A stretch of DNA of 64,000 nucleotides, taken from the IMG/VR virus record IMGVR_UViG_3300032018_000001, positions 32,001 through 96,000 of that record; one strand, given 5' to 3'. Positions 2,087 through 51,546 of this stretch are shown here, one piece after another (the first letter of the stretch is position 1; the number at the start of each line of letters is the position of its first letter). Origin of the DNA: a virus. Under the pieces are notes generated by a model. The model saw only the letters and a program-made list of their open reading frames with translations. It had not been told where the DNA came from and ran no database searches. A program made the position numbers and the translations under genes.

Positions 2087-2745
2087 TGAAAAACCAATGT
2101 AATGATGACGGATTCTCCTACTTAGAAACCCCCGCAATGTACCTATTCGCCCGGCCGCGGACAAGAAACAACGTGCGCGACATCATCAAAATGATTCATC
2201 CCATTCTGGATTATTACATCAAGTACTACCTTTACAAATACAGAATATACGACAACCACCCTGAGCATCTGGACTACTACGGAGATACTTACGTGTTTTG
2301 CTGCGAGCTGCTATACAACGTGCAGCATACCGGTAACAATTTCAACCGGATAAAGCGGTATATCAATAAGTCAATCAGCGGATGGCTTTACAATAAGGTC
2401 TACAAGAAAAAGAAAAAGTGCATAGAGCTAACCAAGGATGAGCTCGCCGTGGCCCTCCAGGTGGATTACCGGGATGATTTTGCTGAGGTGGAGTATCACC
2501 ATGACCTGCGGCAGCTGAAGCAGACCTTGGCAACGGAGCTGGACTTCTATTTTGAGCTGTTCAGCACCGTGTACGGCAATATTGTATTCAAGCACAAGGA
2601 AGAGTTCAAGAAAAAATACTACGATGCGGCATTCCTCAAGTACCTGAAAACGGGGCAGTTACTACAGGCAATCGACTTCTTTGAAAATAAATACGGGAAC
2701 ATTTTTAATGAAACAAAACGAGAAACAGCAGCATGTGGTGTCTGA
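2086..2745 (+). CDS. hypothetical protein, possibly divergent sigma-factor region-2-like
   Basis: helical Tyr-rich N-half ending 'RYINKSISGWLYN'; resemblance only. Confidence 0.3.
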   Translation: MKNQCNDDGFSYLETPAMYLFARPRTRNNVRDIIKMIHPILDYYIKYYLYKYRIYDNHPEHLDYYGDTYVFCCELLYNVQHTGNNFNRIKRYINKSISGWLYNKVYKKKKKCIELTKDELAVALQVDYRDDFAEVEYHHDLRQLKQTLATELDFYFELFSTVYGNIVFKHKEEFKKKYYDAAFLKYLKTGQLLQAIDFFENKYGNIFNETKRETAACGV

Positions 2746-3151
2746 GCTTGACTTGCTGGTTTACATTTTGGCCATAGAAAAGAAGTACTATGACCTGTTT
2801 GAAATGTACGGCATGTTTTACGATTTCAAGAAGTGCAGCCATTGTGGCCACGACAACCAAATTCAGTTCAAGCTTACCAACGAAATCATTCGCACTTTCG
2901 GTGAGCACGGAATGATAAAAATTCCGCAGGACAAGGAGCTGAAGCAGGTGTCCCGCGACATCACAATCTGGAAGGGCCTGATGCGCTGTGAGGATACGTC
3001 CCTGTCTGTAAGGGTGGAAGAGTATGCTGCGCGGTACAAAGTGAGCCAAGACACCATTTATAAAATCAGGCATAGGGTACAAGCAATGGTAGATAAGTTT
3101 GTCGCAATGAAAAAGATATTCAGACGGAGGAAGCGTGAGCCGAATTCCTAA
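2708..3151 (+). CDS. Mor/C-type HTH transcription activator-like protein
   Basis: 'IKIPQDKELKQVSRDITIW...EEYAARYKVSQDTIYKIR' fits the Mor-family layout; ATG at 2708 chosen as start. Confidence 0.55.
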   Translation: MKQNEKQQHVVSELDLLVYILAIEKKYYDLFEMYGMFYDFKKCSHCGHDNQIQFKLTNEIIRTFGEHGMIKIPQDKELKQVSRDITIWKGLMRCEDTSLSVRVEEYAARYKVSQDTIYKIRHRVQAMVDKFVAMKKIFRRRKREPNS

Positions 3152-19410: not shown

Positions 19411-21408
19411 ATGAATAGAATTCGTACCATTGACTTGCTGAAGCAGGCGGATGTAGCCTACTATAACAAAGCTGAGCCTGTTCTTGAGGATACAGAATAT
19501 ACGGAGCTTAAGGATAAGGCCCACGCTTTGTGGCCTGATGACGATTACTTTAAAACGGTAGGCGCTAAGCCTGAAGAAAAAAGTCCATGGGAGATTGTCA
19601 AGCACTCAATACCAATGGGCTCCATTGACAATATTAAAACGGAAAGCCCCAGCACCTTCATTCAGGACATTTTTACCAATACGAAAAAGTGGTGGACAAA
19701 ATTAGGCTGTCCTACGCTTCTGGCACAATACAAGCTGGACGGATTTTCTCTTAATCTTGAATACGTGCCAGCGGATACTGTGATGTCAGACGGCCCTTGT
19801 GATGAAAGCATGTTAATGAATGCTGTCATTCGCGGTGATGGTTTTGAAGGAGAGGACATTTTTAAGAATGCTATTGCCATTCAAGGAATAAAAACCAGCG
19901 GGCCTGCGGAAGTCAGGAATGTTCACTGTGAGGTTATACTTCCCAAAAAAGGCTTGGAGGTAGTCAATGAAATTCAGACACTGGCCAAAGACAAGCTTTA
20001 TGCGAATTGCAGGAATGCGGCTGCTGGCATAGCCCGGCGCTTTGACGGCAAATACTCTAAATTCCTGGCTGCTATACCGTTTGACATCATCCACGAAGGA
20101 AAGAGGCACGATAGCAATGCTATCAATCAATACAAAAAGGTTTTTGGCTTTGTCGAAACCGTCTTCATTGATACTTGGGAAGAGCTGGAGGCTTTTTACA
20201 AAGAGACGCTTGCTAAGCGTCCGGAGCTTCCGTATGACATTGACGGCATTGTTATAAAAGTGGATGACATGGCCCTTCGTAGCAAGGATAAGCCTGAGCT
20301 ACCGGAATGGTGCCGTGCCATGAAATTTCCCCCGGAAGAAAACAGTTTCAAGGTGGACACCCTTCGCTGGTACATTGGAAAGACTGGCAAGGCTACGCCT
20401 GTGGCTCACAACCATGTCGGTGTTCAGTTTCAGGCCAAGGTTATCCGTGAAGTCTCGCTTCACAACTACAATAAATTCTGCTTGCACAAGCTGGCCCCCG
20501 GCGATAAAATTTCTGTGGTCATTGCTGGGGATGTTATACCAAAGATTGAATCTGTGTTAGAGCGGTCAGGTCAGCCTATGTTTACTGCTCCCAAAAACTG
20601 CCCGGAGTGCGGGAGCTTGCTACAGGTGGATGAAAATTTCCTGTACTGCACCTCAGAAGGATGTCCCGGCCGCATAAAATCTCTTATCAGCGCCCACGTA
20701 AAAGAAATGAAGATTGAAGAGGTAGGCCCGGAGTTGATTGACAAGTTGTACAAGCTGGGACAGACCGGGGAAATAAAGTTCAATCACTTTCCTGACCTGT
20801 ACACGCTGACAACCAAAGACATCATGAGGCTGGAGGGCTACCAGGAAAAGTCTGCCATGACTGTCATAACCAATATTCACGCAAGGGTGGAGGTCTCCCT
20901 GGCTGTGTTTATTGCTTCTCTGGGTATTCCTGACATCGGTGCCAAAACCATTGAGAAGTTTGGCAATGTCAGCTTGGACGATTTATTCAAGATGTCTCTT
21001 GATAATATGCGTAAGATAGAAGGGATAGGCCCTACTACGGCTGCGAAAATTAAAGAAGGCTTGGATAACAGCTTTCTTTTAATAGGGCAGCTGTTCGGTA
21101 ACGGCATAAAAATAAAGAAAGTCAAAAGCGTCAAGGTGGACAGTGACCGGTTCAAAGGAAAGAGCTTCTGCTTCACCGGTGAATTTTTGTATATTAATGT
21201 AGACACTGGTAAGAACTATACGCGAGAAGAAGTGCAAGAATTGGTTATTAAGAATGGCGGCATTGTTAAATCCGGTGTTAGTAAAAAGCTTGATACTCTT
21301 GTTTTGGCTGATATGTTAAGTAGTAGCAATAAGGCTACTAAAGCAAAGCAGTGTGGTTGCGAGTTACTATCTGCTGAAGACTTTTTAAAAAGGGTGGGGG
21401 TATTGTGA
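19411..21408 (+). CDS. ligA: NAD-dependent DNA ligase
   Basis: 'H..PMGSI', 'YKLDG', 'RGDG..GEDI', 'NCRNAAAG', 'DGIVIKVD', C4 zinc finger, HhH, BRCT 'FCFTG...VSKKLD'. Confidence 0.95.
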   Translation: MNRIRTIDLLKQADVAYYNKAEPVLEDTEYTELKDKAHALWPDDDYFKTVGAKPEEKSPWEIVKHSIPMGSIDNIKTESPSTFIQDIFTNTKKWWTKLGCPTLLAQYKLDGFSLNLEYVPADTVMSDGPCDESMLMNAVIRGDGFEGEDIFKNAIAIQGIKTSGPAEVRNVHCEVILPKKGLEVVNEIQTLAKDKLYANCRNAAAGIARRFDGKYSKFLAAIPFDIIHEGKRHDSNAINQYKKVFGFVETVFIDTWEELEAFYKETLAKRPELPYDIDGIVIKVDDMALRSKDKPELPEWCRAMKFPPEENSFKVDTLRWYIGKTGKATPVAHNHVGVQFQAKVIREVSLHNYNKFCLHKLAPGDKISVVIAGDVIPKIESVLERSGQPMFTAPKNCPECGSLLQVDENFLYCTSEGCPGRIKSLISAHVKEMKIEEVGPELIDKLYKLGQTGEIKFNHFPDLYTLTTKDIMRLEGYQEKSAMTVITNIHARVEVSLAVFIASLGIPDIGAKTIEKFGNVSLDDLFKMSLDNMRKIEGIGPTTAAKIKEGLDNSFLLIGQLFGNGIKIKKVKSVKVDSDRFKGKSFCFTGEFLYINVDTGKNYTREEVQELVIKNGGIVKSGVSKKLDTLVLADMLSSSNKATKAKQCGCELLSAEDFLKRVGVL

Positions 21409-24782: not shown

Positions 24783-25452
24783 TATTGTAAAGCCTGTCCA
24801 CGGCTGGTTTCATATTGCGGCAATGCTGGGCGGCGAATACATAGCAGCTGAGCTGCATGGGCGCTTGCTTCAGAGCAGGCTGTACGAAGCCAGCACGGCT
24901 ATTCACGTTTCTATTGTAGGAAATATTGAACAAGCAGCACGCCTCCGTGATTACATTTTTAGCCGTCATAGCAAGTATGATGTTTTTTACGTGAGTGCTA
25001 ATCTTGAAGACTATGAGTGGCCCGCTCTAGTTGATATGTATAAAATGGCACACAATGCGGACATAAATTGTTTTTACATCCATACTAAGGGTGCCAGTAA
25101 TTGCAGACCTGATGTTCCTGCATCAATTCAGAAAAATATTCGCTGTTGGCGAGATGTGATGTGCCACTATACTATCGGCAGGCACGCGGAATGCCAGCAG
25201 CTTCTCAATTTGGGCTACGATACCGTAGGCCCTCTCTTTAAATTTGACAGGCATTACGCTGGAAATTTTTGGTGGAGTAAATCTTCCTATTTATGCACGC
25301 TGCCGTATCCAACAGGAAATAGAATGCAAGCCGAAGGCTGGGTTACTGAATGTGGAAAGCCAAAAGTATTTAACCAGTTTTCTGTGGATTCTGATGACCT
25401 GTACGGGTTTGATGGCGGCAATCCTTTCAAGGAGTGGAGGCAATCCGTATGA
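24769..25452 (+). CDS. putative glycosyltransferase-associated protein
   Basis: 'FYIHTKG', 'HYAGNFWW' motifs; lies within the glycan cluster. Confidence 0.55.
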   Translation: MKQSNIVKPVHGWFHIAAMLGGEYIAAELHGRLLQSRLYEASTAIHVSIVGNIEQAARLRDYIFSRHSKYDVFYVSANLEDYEWPALVDMYKMAHNADINCFYIHTKGASNCRPDVPASIQKNIRCWRDVMCHYTIGRHAECQQLLNLGYDTVGPLFKFDRHYAGNFWWSKSSYLCTLPYPTGNRMQAEGWVTECGKPKVFNQFSVDSDDLYGFDGGNPFKEWRQSV

Positions 25453-25958
25453 CAACCTGCTTAAACGTAGGATGCAACGACATTCAGCTGGAAGGTTTTA
25501 TTAATATTGATTTGAATCCTTCCGTTAAACCCGATTTGATTTGGGATGCTACCAAACTACGCGATAAATTTGTTAATGATTCTGTGGACTTTATTTTTTG
25601 CGGACATTTCCTGGAGCACTTCAGTGTTGCCGTTTCTTCTGTTATAGTTAGAGATTTTTATAGCATGTTAAAACCCTATGGCTGCGTGGCCGCTATTGTT
25701 CCTGATTTTAAAAAAGCAGTAGGCGTTACTGCATCAGTGGAGCTTACTACGCCTGAGATAGAAAGAATTGTTTTGGCAGAAGGAACTCATAAAATGATTT
25801 TCACCGAGGATAGATTGGTATCAATTTTTGAACATCAAGGTTTTTCTGCTATCCCAGCTCCTGTAACGCTTTTGCCTTGGTGCCGGTTTCCTGAAGTGCC
25901 TTGGCAATCTGCAGTGCTTGCTATGAAGCATCCCACAGTAAATTTTACGACTGGATGA
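25449..25958 (+). CDS. class I SAM methyltransferase
   Basis: 'LNVGC', 'FINID', 'HFLEH', 'LKPYG...VPD'. Confidence 0.8.
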   Translation: MTTCLNVGCNDIQLEGFINIDLNPSVKPDLIWDATKLRDKFVNDSVDFIFCGHFLEHFSVAVSSVIVRDFYSMLKPYGCVAAIVPDFKKAVGVTASVELTTPEIERIVLAEGTHKMIFTEDRLVSIFEHQGFSAIPAPVTLLPWCRFPEVPWQSAVLAMKHPTVNFTTG

Positions 25959-37440: not shown

Positions 37441-38169
37441 ATGAATGCAACACGCCGGTTAGAAAGTATCCTTCTTGAAGCTGTGTACCAGCTCGGAGAA
37501 GGCGTCTATGACCCCGGAATATTTCGGGCAGTGTTCACCGCAGGAGGCCCCGCTTCTGGAAAATCCTTTGTTGCCAGTATGACTACTGGCGGTTTGGGTT
37601 TGAAAGTGCTGACCTCTGATGATTTGGTAACACTGCTCTGGAAACGTACCGGTAAGTCTTTTGACTTTGATACTTTCTCTCCGGAAGATAAAGCACACTT
37701 TAGCGCTACGCGGCAGGTAGCCAAGGATAAGACTGCAGAACGGCAAGCAAACTTTCTTGAAGGAAGACTCGGCCTTATCATTGATGGCACAGGCGCAGAT
37801 TATTCTGACATTGCAGATTTGAAAAACCAGCTAGAAGAGCTTGGCTACGATTGCTACATGGTGTTTGTTAATACAACACTGGAGGTAGCACAAGGTAGGA
37901 ACGCGGGACGTTTTGAAAGAAATCCTGGCCAAGGCAGGAAAGTTTTTGCAGATGTGCTGAATAAGAAGTGGCGGCAGGCTCAGGATAATATGTCGAAGTT
38001 TCGCGGATTGTTTGGACACAATTTTGTAGAAGTGGATAACAGCGCAGATGCTTCCATGAATGCGGAAGTTTACAGTACCGTCTGGAAGCAGATTATGAAA
38101 TTTGTTAAGCAGCCTATCAGGAATTCAACGGCATTACAGTGGATGCGGGATAAGGGAGCGCGAATATAA
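37441..38169 (+). CDS. P-loop kinase (AAA_33/zeta-toxin-like)
   Basis: 'EGVYDPGIF.AVFTAGGPASGKS', 'LIIDGTG', 'MVFVNT.LEVA..RN..R'. Confidence 0.85.
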   Translation: MNATRRLESILLEAVYQLGEGVYDPGIFRAVFTAGGPASGKSFVASMTTGGLGLKVLTSDDLVTLLWKRTGKSFDFDTFSPEDKAHFSATRQVAKDKTAERQANFLEGRLGLIIDGTGADYSDIADLKNQLEELGYDCYMVFVNTTLEVAQGRNAGRFERNPGQGRKVFADVLNKKWRQAQDNMSKFRGLFGHNFVEVDNSADASMNAEVYSTVWKQIMKFVKQPIRNSTALQWMRDKGARI

Positions 38170-41454: not shown

Positions 41455-42366
41455 ATGACTAAGTTTTTCAAGTTTATCTGGGAGCGCATATCCTGGCTGT
41501 TTTCAAATGATTCGTGGCCTGAGCTTACCGCCACAAAGAAGACCAGTGCAGAGCATGATGCCGCATACCGTAAGGGCCTTACTGGGAGTGCTGTAGGCAT
41601 GACAGGCCCTGAAGCTTTAGGGCGCGGCCCCGAGGGCGTGACCGGCATTCAAGGTACTATTGGTATGGCCAGTATTCCTCCCGTAACTGCATATCCTGGT
41701 ACATCCGTGTTTCAGGGGATAAGAATAAGCGAAGCAGCTTTTAATGCCGGGCAGAGCATGGCACAGTCTGCAAGTCTTCCTGGAGACAGACCTGACCCTT
41801 CTTGGCTTAAGATTCAGATTACAGACTTGACAAATCTTCCGTGGAATAAAAACGGACAGCGGTGGAAGAAGGATGTGAATTATAAAAAGGACATTGACAC
41901 AATCATAGTCCATCAGTCTGCGTCCGGTAGCAAGGATGACCTGGATGGAATCAATCTGTACCAAATCACCGGCCCAAATCATTTAGGGCCTGAGGGAGCC
42001 CCGCACATCTGCTATGATTACGGAATCCGGAAGAACGGAGAAATCTGTCAGCTGAATGCGCCTGAGGATGTTCTCTGGAGTAATGTTGGTGGCAACATAA
42101 AGGGCATTGCTATTGTGGTAGTAGGAAATTTCACAGCGCACGACCACGAAGGCAAGCTTCTCTACCAGGGAACGGATGAGCCTACGCCTGAGCAAACCAA
42201 AAGCCTTAATCGGTTACTTTATTGGCTTTGTCACGAAAGTGAATTTCATAGCAACCTGAGTGCTTTTCGCGTGTATGGGCATACAGATTTCGGAAAGCCT
42301 ACGTGCCCAGGTGATGTGCTGAATGCCCTGGTTACGGATATAAGACGTGGAGGCTATATTTCATGA
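41455..42366 (+). CDS. N-acetylmuramoyl-L-alanine amidase (Amidase_2)
   Basis: 'TIIVHQS', 'ICYDYGI..NG', 'IVVVGNF', 'EPTPEQ', 'YGHTD...TCPG'. Confidence 0.85.
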   Translation: MTKFFKFIWERISWLFSNDSWPELTATKKTSAEHDAAYRKGLTGSAVGMTGPEALGRGPEGVTGIQGTIGMASIPPVTAYPGTSVFQGIRISEAAFNAGQSMAQSASLPGDRPDPSWLKIQITDLTNLPWNKNGQRWKKDVNYKKDIDTIIVHQSASGSKDDLDGINLYQITGPNHLGPEGAPHICYDYGIRKNGEICQLNAPEDVLWSNVGGNIKGIAIVVVGNFTAHDHEGKLLYQGTDEPTPEQTKSLNRLLYWLCHESEFHSNLSAFRVYGHTDFGKPTCPGDVLNALVTDIRRGGYIS

Positions 42367-42712
42367 TGCACTTTATTCATGCACACTGGATTATCGCGTT
42401 TATCTGGCTTATCATCGGAATATTCATGGCCGGGTTTGAAATTCAGAAGTCAGAAATTCATGATAAAAATAAAAAGCAAAAAGGCGAGCCTACCAAAGAG
42501 TACACTGCGGGTGTTCGACTTTTGGCTTCAATGATTATTGCTTGTGCGGGCCCCATAACTTTGATTGCTAACTTTGGTGGCTGGTGTTACAGGAGATACA
42601 ACCGCGGCGGAAATAAAAGAAGAATGCTTTGCTGAAAGACGTTCATACAATAAAGTTCGTAAAGAAGAAAAAGAGTGGTTTGACAAATACGAAACAATAT
42701 AATGTGGGATTT

Positions 42713-42789
42713 GGCCAACAGGGGCGGCACGAATCCCGTGCCACCGCAAATTTGCGAGTACGCAAACTTCGGCAAGCAATTTGTTGTCT
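42713..42789 (+). repeat. attC-like site (left arm degenerate)
   Basis: CAAAT-TTGCG..CGCAA-ACTTCGG motif, then GTTGTCT AAAAT. Confidence 0.55.
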
Positions 42790-42841
42790 AAAATAAACCG
42801 GCCAAGACAAGGCCGCCGCCGAAAGGCAGAAAGCGAGAAAA

Positions 42842-43096
42842 ATGGAAGACTGGAAAGAAGCTATCGTGATTATTATCGCCCTGCTTGTTGTTGGCACCTC
42901 TGCCATCAAAGGGTGCCAAACTGTTTATGAAACTGACGCGAAGGTATCTATTACCGCGATGGAAAAGGGCTACACTCATGCAACGGTTAATGGGTCGTCA
43001 ATGATTGTGTGGGTAAAAAAGACGGCGGCGGAAGAGGCCGGTTTACTTCAGACAACAAACGCAAGCCCGGCTCACTCAACCGCAAATGCTAAATAA
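42842..43096 (+). CDS. cassette-encoded small membrane protein
   Basis: N-terminal hydrophobic helix; reads into the attC site. Confidence 0.6.
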   Translation: MEDWKEAIVIIIALLVVGTSAIKGCQTVYETDAKVSITAMEKGYTHATVNGSSMIVWVKKTAAEEAGLLQTTNASPAHSTANAK

Positions 43097-43160
43097 TGGA
43101 TAGGCGGTTTCGTTCGCCCAAATGCGCTATGCGCACTTCGGGCTTGCGCATCCGTTGGGC
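43050..43160 (+). repeat. attC-like site
   Basis: R'' AGACAAC; arms CGCAAGCCCG/CGGGCTTGCG; CAAAT-GCGC TAT GCGC-ACTT; R' GTTGGGC. Confidence 0.8.
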
Positions 43161-43319
43161 AAAATAAAACTACGCGCAAGGCAAAGAAGCGCGGCTTTCA
43201 GCCTCGGAGGAAATAAAATGGAACAAGAAAAATGCAAAAACACAATCTGTAAATACAATAACGATGGACACTTGATTGGAACTATGTTGCGAAAGAAAAA
43301 GAGCGCGTAGTTTTAAATC

Positions 43320-43377
43320 GCCCAACAACCGGCTTGGCGGCTCCGGTGGACAAGCCACCTACGACCCAACGTTGTGC
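43320..43377 (+). repeat. short/degenerate attC-like site
   Basis: R'' GCCCAAC; GGCTTG/CAAGCC arms; R' GTTGTGC. Confidence 0.65.
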
Positions 43378-43425
43378 GCAAAATTGGCCGAAAGACATTA
43401 AAGGCATCGCGCCGGAAAGACAAAA

Positions 43426-43728
43426 ATGATAAAAACAAAGTTGGTGCAAAAGATAGGTGAATTTAATCTTGAGAAAAGAGTGGTAGTGAATCCCCCGTAC
43501 ACGGTTTACGGGCACAGCACATTATTGCCGTCATTTTCTATGTCTATGAAGGTTGGTGGGCTTCGGAAAATGTTGGTCGGGTTAGCTGACGAAGATTCTT
43601 TCGGAATAACTGTATCCGATAAAATGACAGAATACACCATTGTAAAGAAATTAAAGACCGGCGCGAAATCATCGGCCAATTCAGCGCACAACAAACCCCA
43701 TGCCGGTTCATTCGGCGGGAGAGAATAG
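43426..43728 (+). CDS. cassette-encoded hypothetical protein
   Basis: ORF between attC-like sites. Confidence 0.55.
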   Translation: MIKTKLVQKIGEFNLEKRVVVNPPYTVYGHSTLLPSFSMSMKVGGLRKMLVGLADEDSFGITVSDKMTEYTIVKKLKTGAKSSANSAHNKPHAGSFGGRE

Positions 43729-43799
43729 ATAATGGAAAACCCGCCTCATTCACCCAAATGCGCCAGGAGCGCACTTCGGCATGGGGCGGTCCGTTGTGT
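43686..43799 (+). repeat. attC-like site
   Basis: R'' GCACAAC; arms CCCCATGCCG/CGGCATGGGG; CAAAT-GCGC..GCGC-ACTT; R' GTTGTGT. Confidence 0.8.
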
Positions 43800-43858
43800 T
43801 CAATTAAACCGTGCCAATACCAAAGGCACAACGCGGCCAAGGCCGCTGAAAGGATAAG

Positions 43859-44101
43859 ATGGAGCAAAAATCTTTTTGGATGATTGAAAAGCCTATCAAC
43901 GGTGTCGCTCATTGGTGGGTACGCAGAGAAGGGCAAAACGAATACTGGGATAACCCAGACCGATGGACAACTGATCCCAGTAAGGCACGGCATTACCTTT
44001 CCGTAGAAGAAGCTCTGCACGTTATGGGCCATGACATGATTGGTTGCATTGCAACTGAACATCTCTGGATGGACAAAGAAACAAAGGCAGGCACGGTTTA
44101 A
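43859..44101 (+). CDS. cassette-encoded hypothetical protein
   Basis: 'WMIE...WTTDPSKA......EA...ATEH.W'. Confidence 0.6.
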   Translation: MEQKSFWMIEKPINGVAHWWVRREGQNEYWDNPDRWTTDPSKARHYLSVEEALHVMGHDMIGCIATEHLWMDKETKAGTV

Positions 44102-44137
44102 CTAAACGCCGGTTACACCGGCTGAAAGGCGGAGCAG

Positions 44138-44410
44138 ATGAAAAATTATGAGATGTTTGAGCCAAAATTCAAGATGCATGACATCCTGAAAGATACCACA
44201 AACGGAATGAAAGGTAAGTGTCTCGGTGTCACATTTTATTCTACGGGATGTATTCATTATGGGCTTGCCCCTCTCAAGGCAAAGCCGGACGGAACGCAAC
44301 CGGACTGGTTCTGGCTTGATGAAACACGGGTTGGCTTGGTTCAGTCGGCAAAAATTCAGAAGTTGGAAAAACCACATTCCGGGCCGGATATGAATCCGAG
44401 AATGCAATAA
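44138..44410 (+). CDS. cassette-encoded hypothetical protein
   Basis: 'KD..NG.KG...G..FY.TGC.HYGL.P.....W.DE'. Confidence 0.6.
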   Translation: MKNYEMFEPKFKMHDILKDTTNGMKGKCLGVTFYSTGCIHYGLAPLKAKPDGTQPDWFWLDETRVGLVQSAKIQKLEKPHSGPDMNPRMQ

Positions 44411-44432
44411 AGGCAGCGCAACTTTTAACTAA

Positions 44433-44530
44433 ACACAACAAACTAAAGGGCGGATCACATGCTCGCATGTTCGACCTACATGGTTTTAAAAATTGATTAT
44501 GGGAAAAACCACGTCGCCCTTAGGTTATGG
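44433..44530 (+). repeat. attC-like site (array right end)
   Basis: R'' ACACAAC; arms CTAAAGGGCG/CGCCCTTAG; G|TTATGG. Confidence 0.65.
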
Positions 44531-44704
44531 CGACATCGCAGGCGGGGAATGTGTTGTCGGGTGCGACGCAGAGGCTAAGGTTGTATCAATCGAAATCCTT
44601 GAGGATGGAAAAGTCATAGACAGTTTCAAAGCTTAAAAAGGCAGTCTGAGCCGTGGGTGCGCAATCGTGCCCCTGCGCAGCGCACATCTTGCCCGGCATC
44701 TTTT

Positions 44705-44759
44705 TTCGCGGCTGATGAGGTAGTAACGCCACCGAAACGCCTTAAAGGCGTACCGCGGA
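44705..44759 (+). ncRNA. type I hammerhead ribozyme
   Basis: stem I TTCGCGG/CCGCGGA, core CTGATGA, stem II GGT/ACC, GAAA, stem III CGCCT/AGGCG, GTA cleavage triplet (cut after 44752). Confidence 0.85.
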
Positions 44760-45413
44760 GTGGCCCACGCCGGGGAATAACTGGCCACCAGGGGGCACGG
44801 CTCAGGCTGCTTAGTTTATACTTAAAAAGGAGTGTGTATGGAAGAGAGAACAGAAGTTGATGTTAAGAAGATGAGCGCTGATGATTTTATCAGCAAACTT
44901 CGGGTGCCCCCTTGCCGCGGTCTCATGGGCAAGATTTTCGGTCACAATTTTGTGGAGGCCATTAACCAGGATACTGCCGGGCTTTCCCCGGAGCAGCTGG
45001 CTCACATTGTCGAAGCCTGCATTGACCCTACAATGGATATGGTCACGGTACGGCATCTCATTTCTACCACGGAGCCGGGTACTACACTTGTCAAGGCTAT
45101 CTACTGCACGCGCTGCGGGGAGGAGAAGAGCGTCAATGGAAATGGCAATTCGGGCAAGTAAGCAGGAAATACTTGACAATTACGGTACGCTTGAGCTGAA
45201 TTTTGTTCGGGAGCGGCATGGGATATTCTGGTATGCAAATACCATACAGAAGTTTTTTCCTGTTGCAGAGCCTGCTCTTGAATTCACAGCCAGCATAGGC
45301 TACCCATTGACGCCGAAAGTTACCGTCCGGTATTTCATAGAAGAGGGGGAAAACATTTCCATCATCAAAAAAGACACCGGAGCATTTCTCTATGTTCAAA
45401 CACGGAGCTGACT

Positions 45414-46079
45414 GTGAAAACAAGAGCGGAGCTTGCAGCTATTTGGGAGTTTGGTTTTCTTGTTTTATTTATTATACTGGCTGGCTGGCTGGCCTTAATG
45501 GTTAAAAAGCAGCAAGTCACCATTGATGCAGCAGAAAGGATTGCTCAGGTGTACAAAGCAGATTCGGTAGAGCTTCACGCTATCAAGGCCACACTCATGC
45601 TGGCCTATGACCTGTCAGACCCAGAGGCGGAATTTTTCGGGTACTGGTTTAACAAAAAATCCAAGCAGTTCAGTATTCCGTGGATGACCTTTGCTGCGGT
45701 TGCTAAGGTTGAATCAGGCTACAATCCCACTGCTACCTCTGAGGCCGGTGCCAAGGGGTACATGCAGATGCTTGATACCACACACCAAGAGCAGTGTCAA
45801 AAGCTGGGTATTCCATTTGTGAAGGGTAAGACTCCATGGATTGATGTAATCAATGTCGTGTGCGGTAGCAACTACTTGGCTGAATCAAAGGATACTACTT
45901 TTGAGGTCATGGTTAAACGCTATCTGGCACCGCTGCATGCTAAGATAAAAAAGCAAGCCAAGAAAGAGCCTGAGAATGTTCAGCTGCAAAAGAAGGCTGC
46001 TACGATTGAGCAGTACTACCATGACGTGCGCCGGGAATTTATGCTGCTGAGCGCTATCTATACCGGGATTAAAAAATGA
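45414..46079 (+). CDS. membrane-anchored lytic transglycosylase (SLT)
   Basis: N-terminal TM; 'AVAKVESGYNPTATSEAGAKGYMQML', 'N...G..YL'. Confidence 0.85.
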   Translation: MKTRAELAAIWEFGFLVLFIILAGWLALMVKKQQVTIDAAERIAQVYKADSVELHAIKATLMLAYDLSDPEAEFFGYWFNKKSKQFSIPWMTFAAVAKVESGYNPTATSEAGAKGYMQMLDTTHQEQCQKLGIPFVKGKTPWIDVINVVCGSNYLAESKDTTFEVMVKRYLAPLHAKIKKQAKKEPENVQLQKKAATIEQYYHDVRREFMLLSAIYTGIKK

Positions 46080-51198: not shown

Positions 51199-51546
51199 GG
51201 GGGTGAACGGACTCGATTTGAGAATTTAAGTAGTAGGTGCATGCTGAGGACGCAGGTGGGCCTCATAAAAATCCTGCAACAAACAAACAACGAATCCAAT
51301 GTTGTTTCTCTGGCCACGCGCCAGAGCGCTGCCTTACAGCTCTCTTTCGTAGCTGCAAGGGCCAGTGTCGCAAACGAAGCGCTCCGTCTCGCAGCGTAAG
51401 CGAGATTGATTGCGGGCTAAGTCCCGTTGCTGGCGTGAAACTGGTGCTGGGTAACTGACACGTCATAAGATGAGACCCGGATAAGCATGTAGTACCTACG
51501 CGGACGTTTTCAAAGACCGGGCTATCATAGGCCCGCACCTCCACCA
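51199..51546 (+). ncRNA. ssrA: tmRNA
   Basis: acceptor GGGGGTG/CACCTCC with G3-U, 3' ACCA; pk1 GAGG/CCTC plus GCAGG/CCTGC; tag ORF ends LRLAA-TAA (51399). Confidence 0.9.

Follow-up and report, generated by a model that had tools for sequence, protein, structure and literature searches.

What kind of RNA is encoded at 44639-44812 on the + strand of this phage DNA, and what is the place in it of the hammerhead ribozyme that was predicted there? The window, by which the whole analysed stretch of 64,000 nucleotides (nt) is meant, comprises bases 32001-96000 of an IMG/VR phage genome (IMGVR_UViG_3300032018_000001) of 141.8 kb, which contains direct terminal repeats and is rated 100% complete. An initial annotation, made from the letters of the window, had described a hammerhead core nested in a possibly switchable RNA of about this extent. 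As judged from comparison with its homologues, the stretch 44639-44812 (+) is one copy of an RNA family that is widespread, uncatalogued and present in dozens of mutually unrelated phages; in this family a double-pseudoknot scaffold carries the hammerhead as its central arm.

Anatomy of the element in the window

The pair model of the window was found to contain 54 base pairs (bp), comprising 51 Watson-Crick pairs, three G-U pairs and no mismatch, and the G-U pairs of the element were possible on the + strand only. The parts of the element, from the 5′ to the 3′ end, are as follows.

44639-44812 (+), whole element, about 170 nt
44639..44653 (+), 5′ strand of P1, the outer closing helix of 15 bp with 44798-44812
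44654..44656 (+), J1/2, UGG, in the near-invariant CCGUGGGY; unpaired in copies whose 3′ strand is without CAC (L037, L046)
44657..44685 (+), P2 hairpin, GUGCGC 44657-44662 with GCGCAC 44680-44685; the 17-nt loop holds the 5′ strand of PK1 and a conserved G(U/C)GCA
44668..44674 (+), 5′ strand of PK1, UGCCCCU, inside the P2 loop; partner 44791-44797
44686..44689 (+), AUCU junction, invariant, in every row of the 42-copy alignment A4
44692..44697 (+), 5′ strand of PK2, CCCGGC, pairing with GCCGGG 44769-44774 in the P5 loop
44698..44706 (+), variable U-rich linker from PK2 to stem I, about 2 to 24 nt among members; site of the RNA ends in the permuted member
44707..44757 (+), type I hammerhead with full consensus core
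44707-44711 and 44753-44757 (+), stem I, CGCGG with CCGCG
44712-44718 (+), first core box, CUGAUGA
44719-44733 (+), stem II, GGU with ACC, 3 bp and a 9-nt loop
44734-44736 (+), GAA core box
44737-44751 (+), stem III, ACGCCU with AGGCGU, 6 bp; A44737-U44751 is the A15.1-U16.1 pair
44752 (+), A17, in the site GUA, followed by C44753
44758..44759 (+), GA junction, in the invariant CCG(C/U)GGAG
44760..44788 (+), P5 hairpin, GUGGCC 44760-44765 with GGCCAC 44783-44788; the loop holds the 3′ strand of PK2 at 44769-44774 and the invariant GAAUAACU at 44775-44782
44791..44797 (+), 3′ strand of PK1, GGGGGCA, directly abutting the 3′ strand of P1
44798..44812 (+), 3′ strand of P1

The outer helix GCAGUCUGAGCCGUG/CACGGCUCAGGCUGC was found to be present with one G-U pair and to be extendable to 44639/44812, and it closes the RNA. 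The segment CGUGCCCC at 44666 was complementary to GGGGCACG near 44792-44799, which is the PK1 pairing, and PK1 stacks on the 3′ strand of P1. PK2 and P5 form an H-type pseudoknot, the 8-nt A-rich third loop of which (GAAUAACU) is invariant, and the hammerhead emerges between the 5′ strand of PK2 and P5.

The hammerhead core, placed by the initial annotation at 44705-44759 with a GUA site, was recovered almost to the base at 44707-44757. It was found to contain CUGANGA, GAA, the A15.1-U16.1 pair and an H17 that is not G, and, with A17 at position 44752, the cut is predicted at 44752|44753. A search with our own descriptor over both strands of the whole 141.8-kb genome found this one type I hammerhead, whereas first-order Markov shuffles contained 0.03 loose matches per genome and none of the 200 shuffled genomes contained a match as good as the real hammerhead. 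For the surrounding 180-nt stretch the minimum-energy fold, at -83.7 kcal/mol (z = -2.8), is hammerhead-competent. Chance hammerhead strings are expected across the approximately 250,000 windows that were scanned, so comparative evidence was required. With that evidence, given below, the RNA of the window is on sequence grounds a genuine type I hammerhead.

Homologues, covariation and variant copies

Whole-element homologues were collected from metagenomes and IMG/VR by three independent pattern scans. The pattern that fixed the core and stem I only found six whole-element homologues in metagenomes. The second pattern, in which the cleavage site and the P5 loop were specified and CUGANGA, GAAA and stems II and III were left free, found eight further distinct copies in IMG/VR, and all eight had kept the core. 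The third pattern was composed of the scaffold motifs CCGUGGG, CAUCU and GAAUAACUGG and contained no hammerhead bases; it found 37 loci with 31 distinct sequences, 29 of which contained CUGANGA, the remaining two having a 1-nt insertion at N7 (L079) and a change of G5 to C (L090).

Model R1 aligned 42 copies from metagenomes and IMG/VR phage contigs (alignment A4). The window, which is in the seed of R1, scored 172.6 bits, followed by independent members at 97-144 bits and cultured phages at 67-118 bits. A BLAST search with one member as query led to copies in cultured phages, and R1 confirmed three of them. The cultured carriers are the Arthrobacter phages Karkharias and Constance, the Mycobacterium phage Gaia and the Enterobacter phage SDFMU_EhYP, and the core of the Karkharias copy is intact. 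Throughout the family the motifs CCGUGGGY, AUCU, CCG(C/U)GGAG and GAAUAA(C/A)U were found together with P2, PK1, PK2 and P5 in constant order, to which the window conforms, and GAAUAA(C/A)U was present in every member.

Other routes to relatives gave no further members. No second copy was found in this genome, BLAST of the 801-nt region of the window against GenBank phages gave no match, and an initial specific DNA pattern gave none in IMG/VR. Among the flanking proteins, the 176-residue (aa) frame, half of which is off-frame, and the SLT protein found nothing in IMG/VR, and the topoisomerase route led to 20 loci that share only the topoisomerase gene, none with a hammerhead or similarity to the element. 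Rfam 15 was searched at gathering score with the window, the rest of the genome and 19 other member loci; only transfer-messenger RNA (tmRNA) and transfer RNAs (tRNAs) were found, and no copy of the element was matched. Full-text literature searches returned no description of a double-pseudoknot/hammerhead family.

Several matches were set aside as chance matches, namely L035, L039, L040 and L044 (human gut), L055-L065 and L067 (genomes), and L069. The string in the four human-gut contigs fits the hammerhead pattern without a proper stem III or scaffold and is probably opposite-strand coding sequence. Other phage contigs (L027-L032) were found to contain plain type I hammerheads with a stem I of 4-6 bp, located between a stop codon and the next ribosome-binding site.

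Covariation was scored with our own structure model on the 42 sequences of A4, to which both pseudoknots were added by hand; a 17-row version was also scored. Paired cells amounted to 89.0%, against 37-40% when the partners were slid by 1-3 columns, and compensatory changes were present in 42 of the 51 pairs, values that were reached by none of 500 shuffles. The individual helices were scored as follows.

P2: 98.8% of cells paired, 5/6 pairs compensatory
PK2: 98.8% of cells paired, 6/6 pairs compensatory
P5: 100% of cells paired, 4/6 pairs compensatory
Stem III: 98.9% of cells paired, 4/5 pairs compensatory
P1: 77.7% of cells paired, 13/15 pairs compensatory
PK1 (imperfectly aligned): 71.7% of cells paired, 5/5 scored pairs compensatory

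Stem II contained compensatory changes in 3/3 pairs, and stem I contained G-C to A-U changes at two positions. Since PK1 and PK2 are absent from the alignment model, their covariation is not an artefact of fitting. Every helix named in the initial annotation covaries, and the core and its stems are conserved: the 15-bp outer helix is present and covaries as P1, the GTGGCC/GGCCAC hairpin stands as P5, and the pseudoknot considered possible between the loop GCCGGG and CCCGGC is borne out as PK2.

PK1 and P1 were also assessed without an alignment. Among the first 15 members, PK1 was 8-11 bp long in all 15, with at least 10 different sequences, and cognate strands gave a mean of 22.1 against 13.4 for non-cognate strands. 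For P1 the cognate mean was 31.1 against 13.8, and the median cognate score lay above every non-cognate one. In 11 of the first 15 members P1 comprised 9-22 bp, with a sequence unrelated from one member to the next, and it was weak or absent in L036, L049, L053 and L045.

The catalytic core was kept in 39 of the 42 copies. The census of N7 (U23/C12/A4) and of H17 (A18/C20/U1/G0) shows that N7 varies without restriction and that G is absent from H17, as the chemistry of hammerheads requires. Position 10.1-11.1 was mostly G-C, and loop II was variable, with GNRA-like tetraloops in some members and 7-9 nt loops containing U(A/C)ACG in the subgroup of the window; as regards a tertiary contact of stem I with stem II, loop II had no identified covarying partner among these variable sequences. 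By sequence comparison, the anatomy of the element, the existence of the family, its covariation and the conservation of its core are established.

A few copies were found to depart from the standard form. In L068, obtained with the scaffold-motif pattern after its middle gap had been made short, a small hairpin takes the place of the hammerhead, and the scaffold and CCG(C/U)GGAG are kept. The copy of Gaia contains UUGAUAA instead of CUGAUGA and its core is predicted to be dead. This copy (L100:1488-1665; NC_026590.1 ~77834-78011) begins inside the last bases of an annotated tRNA-Ser(cga) in a tRNA cluster, and the region past that tRNA is otherwise unannotated up to gene 147. The copy of SDFMU_EhYP (L101:1400-1670; OQ884031.1 ~19513-19783), located in an unannotated gap after a terminator, is circularly permuted, its order being hammerhead, 3′ half, capped P1 and 5′ half, enclosed by a new 10-bp helix. 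Its P1 is capped by a loop and its RNA ends lie in the linker before stem I, and P2, PK1, PK2 and P5 and indeed every helix are retained. The predicted cut exposes the identical 5′ end in the standard and the permuted topology. One IMG/VR contig (L094) contains a tandem pair at 2552-2714 and 2730-2887 (-), about 16 nt apart.

No conserved protein neighbour was found across the copies. The contexts include a place between the terminase and portal genes, followed by a terminator (L049), a place after an endonuclease VII gene (L052), places at most 20 nt from tRNA genes (L037, L072 and Gaia), and, in SDFMU_EhYP, a place after a T7-type capsid-region terminator and ahead of tail tube A; cassette arrays are only one of the settings of the family. 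Over 155 nt (44649-44802) the element is 94% identical to its closest copy, L042, but the outer P1 stem and the two flanks of L042 bear no relation to those in the window. In this respect the ~155-nt core resembles a module placed within a different local stem in each genome, and it may be mobile.

Proposed cleavage and end protection, and rival explanations

The element is read here, with moderate confidence, as a cis-acting self-cleaving element in which the scaffold would organise stem I, both ends would be locked after the cut, and the accessory block upstream would be separated from the downstream genes. The element would be transcribed within the + strand message, and the hammerhead would cut between A44752 and C44753, leaving a 2′,3′-cyclic phosphate on the upstream RNA and a 5′-OH on the downstream RNA, which would start with CCGCGGAG.... 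In many members stem I is only 3-5 bp long, and its strands are directly connected to PK2 and P5; it is probably the scaffold that holds stem I in place and provides the tertiary support for which ordinary hammerheads rely on loop-loop contacts. After the cut the halves would stay joined through P1 (15 bp), PK1 (7 bp), PK2 (6 bp) and stem I, with both new ends buried in the knotted structure and shielded from exonucleases. The net effect would be that the accessory block of small open reading frames (ORFs) at ~42.6-44.6 kb is uncoupled at the RNA level from P0002, the SLT transglycosylase gene and the GroES-like gene. Cleavage, co-transcription, the role as clamp and end protection, and a benefit to the phage are what we infer from the sequences, and the cutting of the polycistronic message of this phage by the element is plausible. 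Phage intergenic hammerheads, including pseudoknot-stabilised ones, cleave in vitro and in vivo (PMC3088659). In SDFMU_EhYP the 3′ cleavage product would carry the whole scaffold, which would thereby form the 5′ end of the tail-tube A message; this fits a role as an end structure.

Several observations weigh against this reading. The hammerhead check against Rfam, which the initial annotation had proposed, found no model that reaches its gathering score; the window matched HH9 best, but only locally and with 13.6 bits, the gathering score being 52, and RF00163 gave nothing in the permissive search (E <= 10). This shortfall is ascribed to the models, owing to the long loop II and the continuation of stem I by the scaffold, and not to the ribozyme class. 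Stem II of the window is short (3 bp), and its loop is 9 nt long. Some 25 unpaired bases are invariant (UGG, AUCU, G(U/A)(G/C)CA, GA, GAAUAACU, and CA or CUAG); they exceed the needs of a simple clamp and give a hint of a ligand, a protein partner or another activity. The scaffold survives without a working hammerhead in L068, Gaia, L090 (G5 to C) and L079 (1-nt insertion), and the job of the scaffold is therefore not strictly dependent on cleavage. Some copies appeared to be antisense to their neighbours by crude ORF calls (L045, L046, L043, L075 and L079), and a terminator was found directly downstream of about a fifth of the copies; processing between cistrons is therefore not universal.

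A less likely but considerable possibility is that the scaffold itself is the functional unit, namely a stand-alone, trans-acting phage non-coding RNA such as a protein-binding decoy or a cofactor. The hammerhead would then serve only for maturation, by opening or releasing the scaffold and generating a 5′-OH end at CCG(C/U)GGAG, and the cutting of neighbouring messages would be incidental. This agrees with the retention of the whole scaffold, including CCG(C/U)GGAG, in hammerhead-less and core-dead copies, with the many invariant unpaired bases, with the lack of a conserved protein neighbour, with copies that are antisense or have a terminator of their own, and with the same 5′ end exposed in the standard and permuted topologies; the location of copies beside tRNA genes is a context common to GOLLD and ROOL (PMC5737381). 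However, the cut of the standard topology falls in the middle of the scaffold and not at its ends, so that no flank is trimmed, and most copies were co-directional with both neighbours (19 same/same against 4 opposite/opposite, from crude stop-to-stop ORFs and indicative only). No promoter is evident upstream of the element in this phage, and the partner protein is still only hypothetical.

A conditional role, as had been proposed by the initial annotation, is improbable. In this explanation the hammerhead would be allosteric, the scaffold sensing a metabolite, an ion or a protein, and its folding state would decide whether stem I is formed and the RNA is cut. As candidate switches, PK1 could compete with the top of P1, or the 5′ CCGUGG could compete with stem I for the strand CCGCGG. 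In the window, PK1 and the top of P1 overlap by 2-4 nt (44796-44799), and an overlap was present in 5 of the first 15 members. The invariant CCGUGG is complementary, with one G-U, to the invariant 3′ strand CCGCGG of stem I, so that a hammerhead-off pairing may be possible; this pairing is beyond the reach of covariation, since neither motif varies. As many invariant unpaired bases are typically seen in binding pockets, and pseudoknot contacts are easily made allosteric according to Perreault et al. (PMC3088659).

On the other side, P1, PK1, PK2 and P5 covary together as one mutually compatible fold, most members are without the overlap, and the gene contexts are too varied to suggest a ligand. 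The permuted SDFMU_EhYP copy keeps the same set of helices, which argues for a single native fold. No ligand-binding aptamer was matched in Rfam at gathering score in any of 20 copies, and in the permissive scan of the window (E <= 10) only HH9 fell on the element. The pairing of CGUGCCCC with GGGGCACG, noted initially as a competitor of the outer helix, is real and covaries as PK1, and its overlap with the outer helix is limited to 2-4 nt. In the aligned sequences the supposed alternative pairings behave as adjacent parts of one double-pseudoknot fold, and there is no support for a ligand-gated switch. Little credence is given to the idea that the scaffold senses a metabolite, an ion or a protein and, as a sensor domain, gates the formation of stem I; if this were true, the family would represent the first natural allosteric hammerhead, a phage ribozyme switch that times the cutting of a transcript.

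Far less probable than either is a chance hammerhead-like string or a DNA palindrome (a recombination site, an attC-like site or a terminator) without ribozyme function, and this is contradicted by the comparative data. It could be suggested by the sub-threshold Rfam score, by the long inverted repeat that bounds the element beside other units bounded by inverted repeats, and by the chance-like hammerhead strings in the unrelated human-gut contigs. Against it stand the 42 homologues with compensatory changes in every helix and the core in 39, the 200 shuffled genomes among which none matched the quality of the real hammerhead, the restriction of the G-U pairs to the + strand, and the absence of R″/R′ integron core sites and of a U-tract after P1. 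An integron attC site was rejected as the arms begin with GGCAGUC and end with GGCUGCU, without R″ (RYYYAAC) or R′ (GTTRRRY). An intrinsic terminator was also rejected; UAGUUUAUACUU follows P1 and the terminator scan listed no + strand site. The double-pseudoknot topology of the hepatitis delta virus type was set aside because its strands follow another order; twister, pistol and hatchet ribozymes were likewise set aside, as they gave no Rfam match.

The purpose of bacterial and phage hammerheads has been an open question since thousands of them were found in 2011. In the present family the ribozyme is built into a larger RNA as a fixed component. This RNA, which is strongly conserved and topologically knotted, occurs repeatedly in very different phages, whose hosts are Actinobacteria, Enterobacteria and possibly cyanobacteria, as well as in many metagenomic viruses. 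The hammerhead-less, dead-core and circularly permuted copies represent natural controls, and since several carriers are cultured (Karkharias, Constance, SDFMU_EhYP and Gaia), cleavage, end protection, ligand control and fitness are directly testable. For annotation, these gaps of ~170 nt represent an RNA gene or element that is missed by Rfam 15.

The glmS ribozyme and the c-di-GMP-II riboswitch coupled to a group I intron are natural allosteric ribozymes. The family resembles them in that a ribozyme is joined to a second, highly conserved structured domain, but it contains no aptamer match and gives no evidence of mutually exclusive folds. Flavivirus exoribonuclease-resistant RNAs contain a compact pseudoknotted fold that encloses an RNA end. 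They serve as a model for the idea of end protection, as a functional analogy only and without shown sequence or topological homology, and unlike in these RNAs the end in the present family would be made by its own ribozyme.

The family shares with the bacterial and phage type I hammerheads (RF00163, clan CL00010; PMC3088659) the core C3 U4 G5 A6 N7 G8 A9, G12 A13 A14, A15.1-U16.1 and H17, surrounded by three stems, of which stem I is open. It shares the phage intergenic location with the PaP3 and Bcep176 hammerheads, and the reliance on pseudoknots instead of a simple loop-loop contact with the pseudoknot-stabilised type I hammerheads. Unlike in known type I hammerheads, stem I continues into a conserved scaffold of ~100 nt with two interlocked pseudoknots (P2/PK1 and P5/PK2) closed by P1, there are ~25 invariant unpaired bases, and the scaffold also occurs in hammerhead-less, core-dead and permuted forms; the family lies below the gathering score of every Rfam hammerhead model. 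The plain hammerheads of L027-L032 contain the same core in the same position between stop codon and ribosome-binding site, but their stem I of 4-6 bp is open and without scaffold, and R1 matches their hammerhead part only (22-25 bits). GOLLD and ROOL (Weinberg et al. 2017, PMC5737381) are likewise phage-borne, sporadic and sometimes beside tRNA genes, whereas the present family is much smaller (~100 nt scaffold), has no sequence or model similarity to them (no Rfam hit) and carries a self-cleaving ribozyme. The hammerhead class and the phage intergenic and pseudoknot-stabilised hammerheads are already known (PMC3088659); the scaffold is not in Rfam 15, and the literature searches returned nothing on it.

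Gene neighbourhood and other features of the window

The + strand carries nearly all genes of the phage, and the strand of the element is that of all surrounding genes, which include many small ORFs. The following genes were found around the element.

41455-42366, amidase gene
44499..44636 (+), P0003, putative gene of 45 aa without family match, ending 3 nt 5′ of P1
44838..45161 (+), P0002, first gene 3′ of the element, 107 aa, with an AAGGAG ribosome-binding site
45414-46079, SLT transglycosylase gene; a GroES-like gene and a topoisomerase gene are also among the neighbours

The element starts 3 nt past a stop codon and 26 nt separate it from the next ATG, a tight fit between stop codon and ribosome-binding site. 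The terminator scan found no + strand terminator between the element and its neighbouring genes. With 64.5% G+C against 46% in the genome, the element represents a G+C island.

The initial annotation had placed the RNA right after a cassette array, and this placement agrees with the comparison of gene coordinates, on which the following relies. In the nearest relative the P0002 homologue adjoins the amidase gene and an 83-aa gene, with a gap of 24 nt, and the ~2.2-kb block at ~42636-44837, including the element, is therefore accessory. The gaps upstream of the P0002 homologues P0004 (85%) and P0005 (73%) are too small for the element. By these coordinates the element is the right end of an accessory block that is absent from the nearest relative.

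Within the window, 42780-44107 was found to contain four consecutive units, each bounded by 18-24-nt inverted repeats GTTG.../...CAAC (pairs I2, I3, I6 and I9). These units share a recurring ACAACAAAC and lie in the block (~42636-44837) that seems to be absent in the nearest relative. The P1 arms of the hammerhead element do not match the GTTG.../...CAAC consensus.

The listed 176-aa ORF at 44881-45411 contains off-frame junk in its first half, and the real genes at this locus appear to be P0002 (44838-45161) followed by a short overlapping gene from ~45137 to 45411. A DNA and peptide motif, FGHNFVE, is common to 38011-38030 and 44937-44956, which hints at a paralogue of P0002 in the ORF 37441-38169. 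A tmRNA gene was found at 51199-51546 (+) of the window, matched over its full length by Rfam RF00023 with 89.1 bits, whereas ARAGORN makes no call. An extreme G+C island, with up to 82% in 150-nt windows, is present at 25025-25609 of the genome, ~6.4-7.0 kb before the start of the window.

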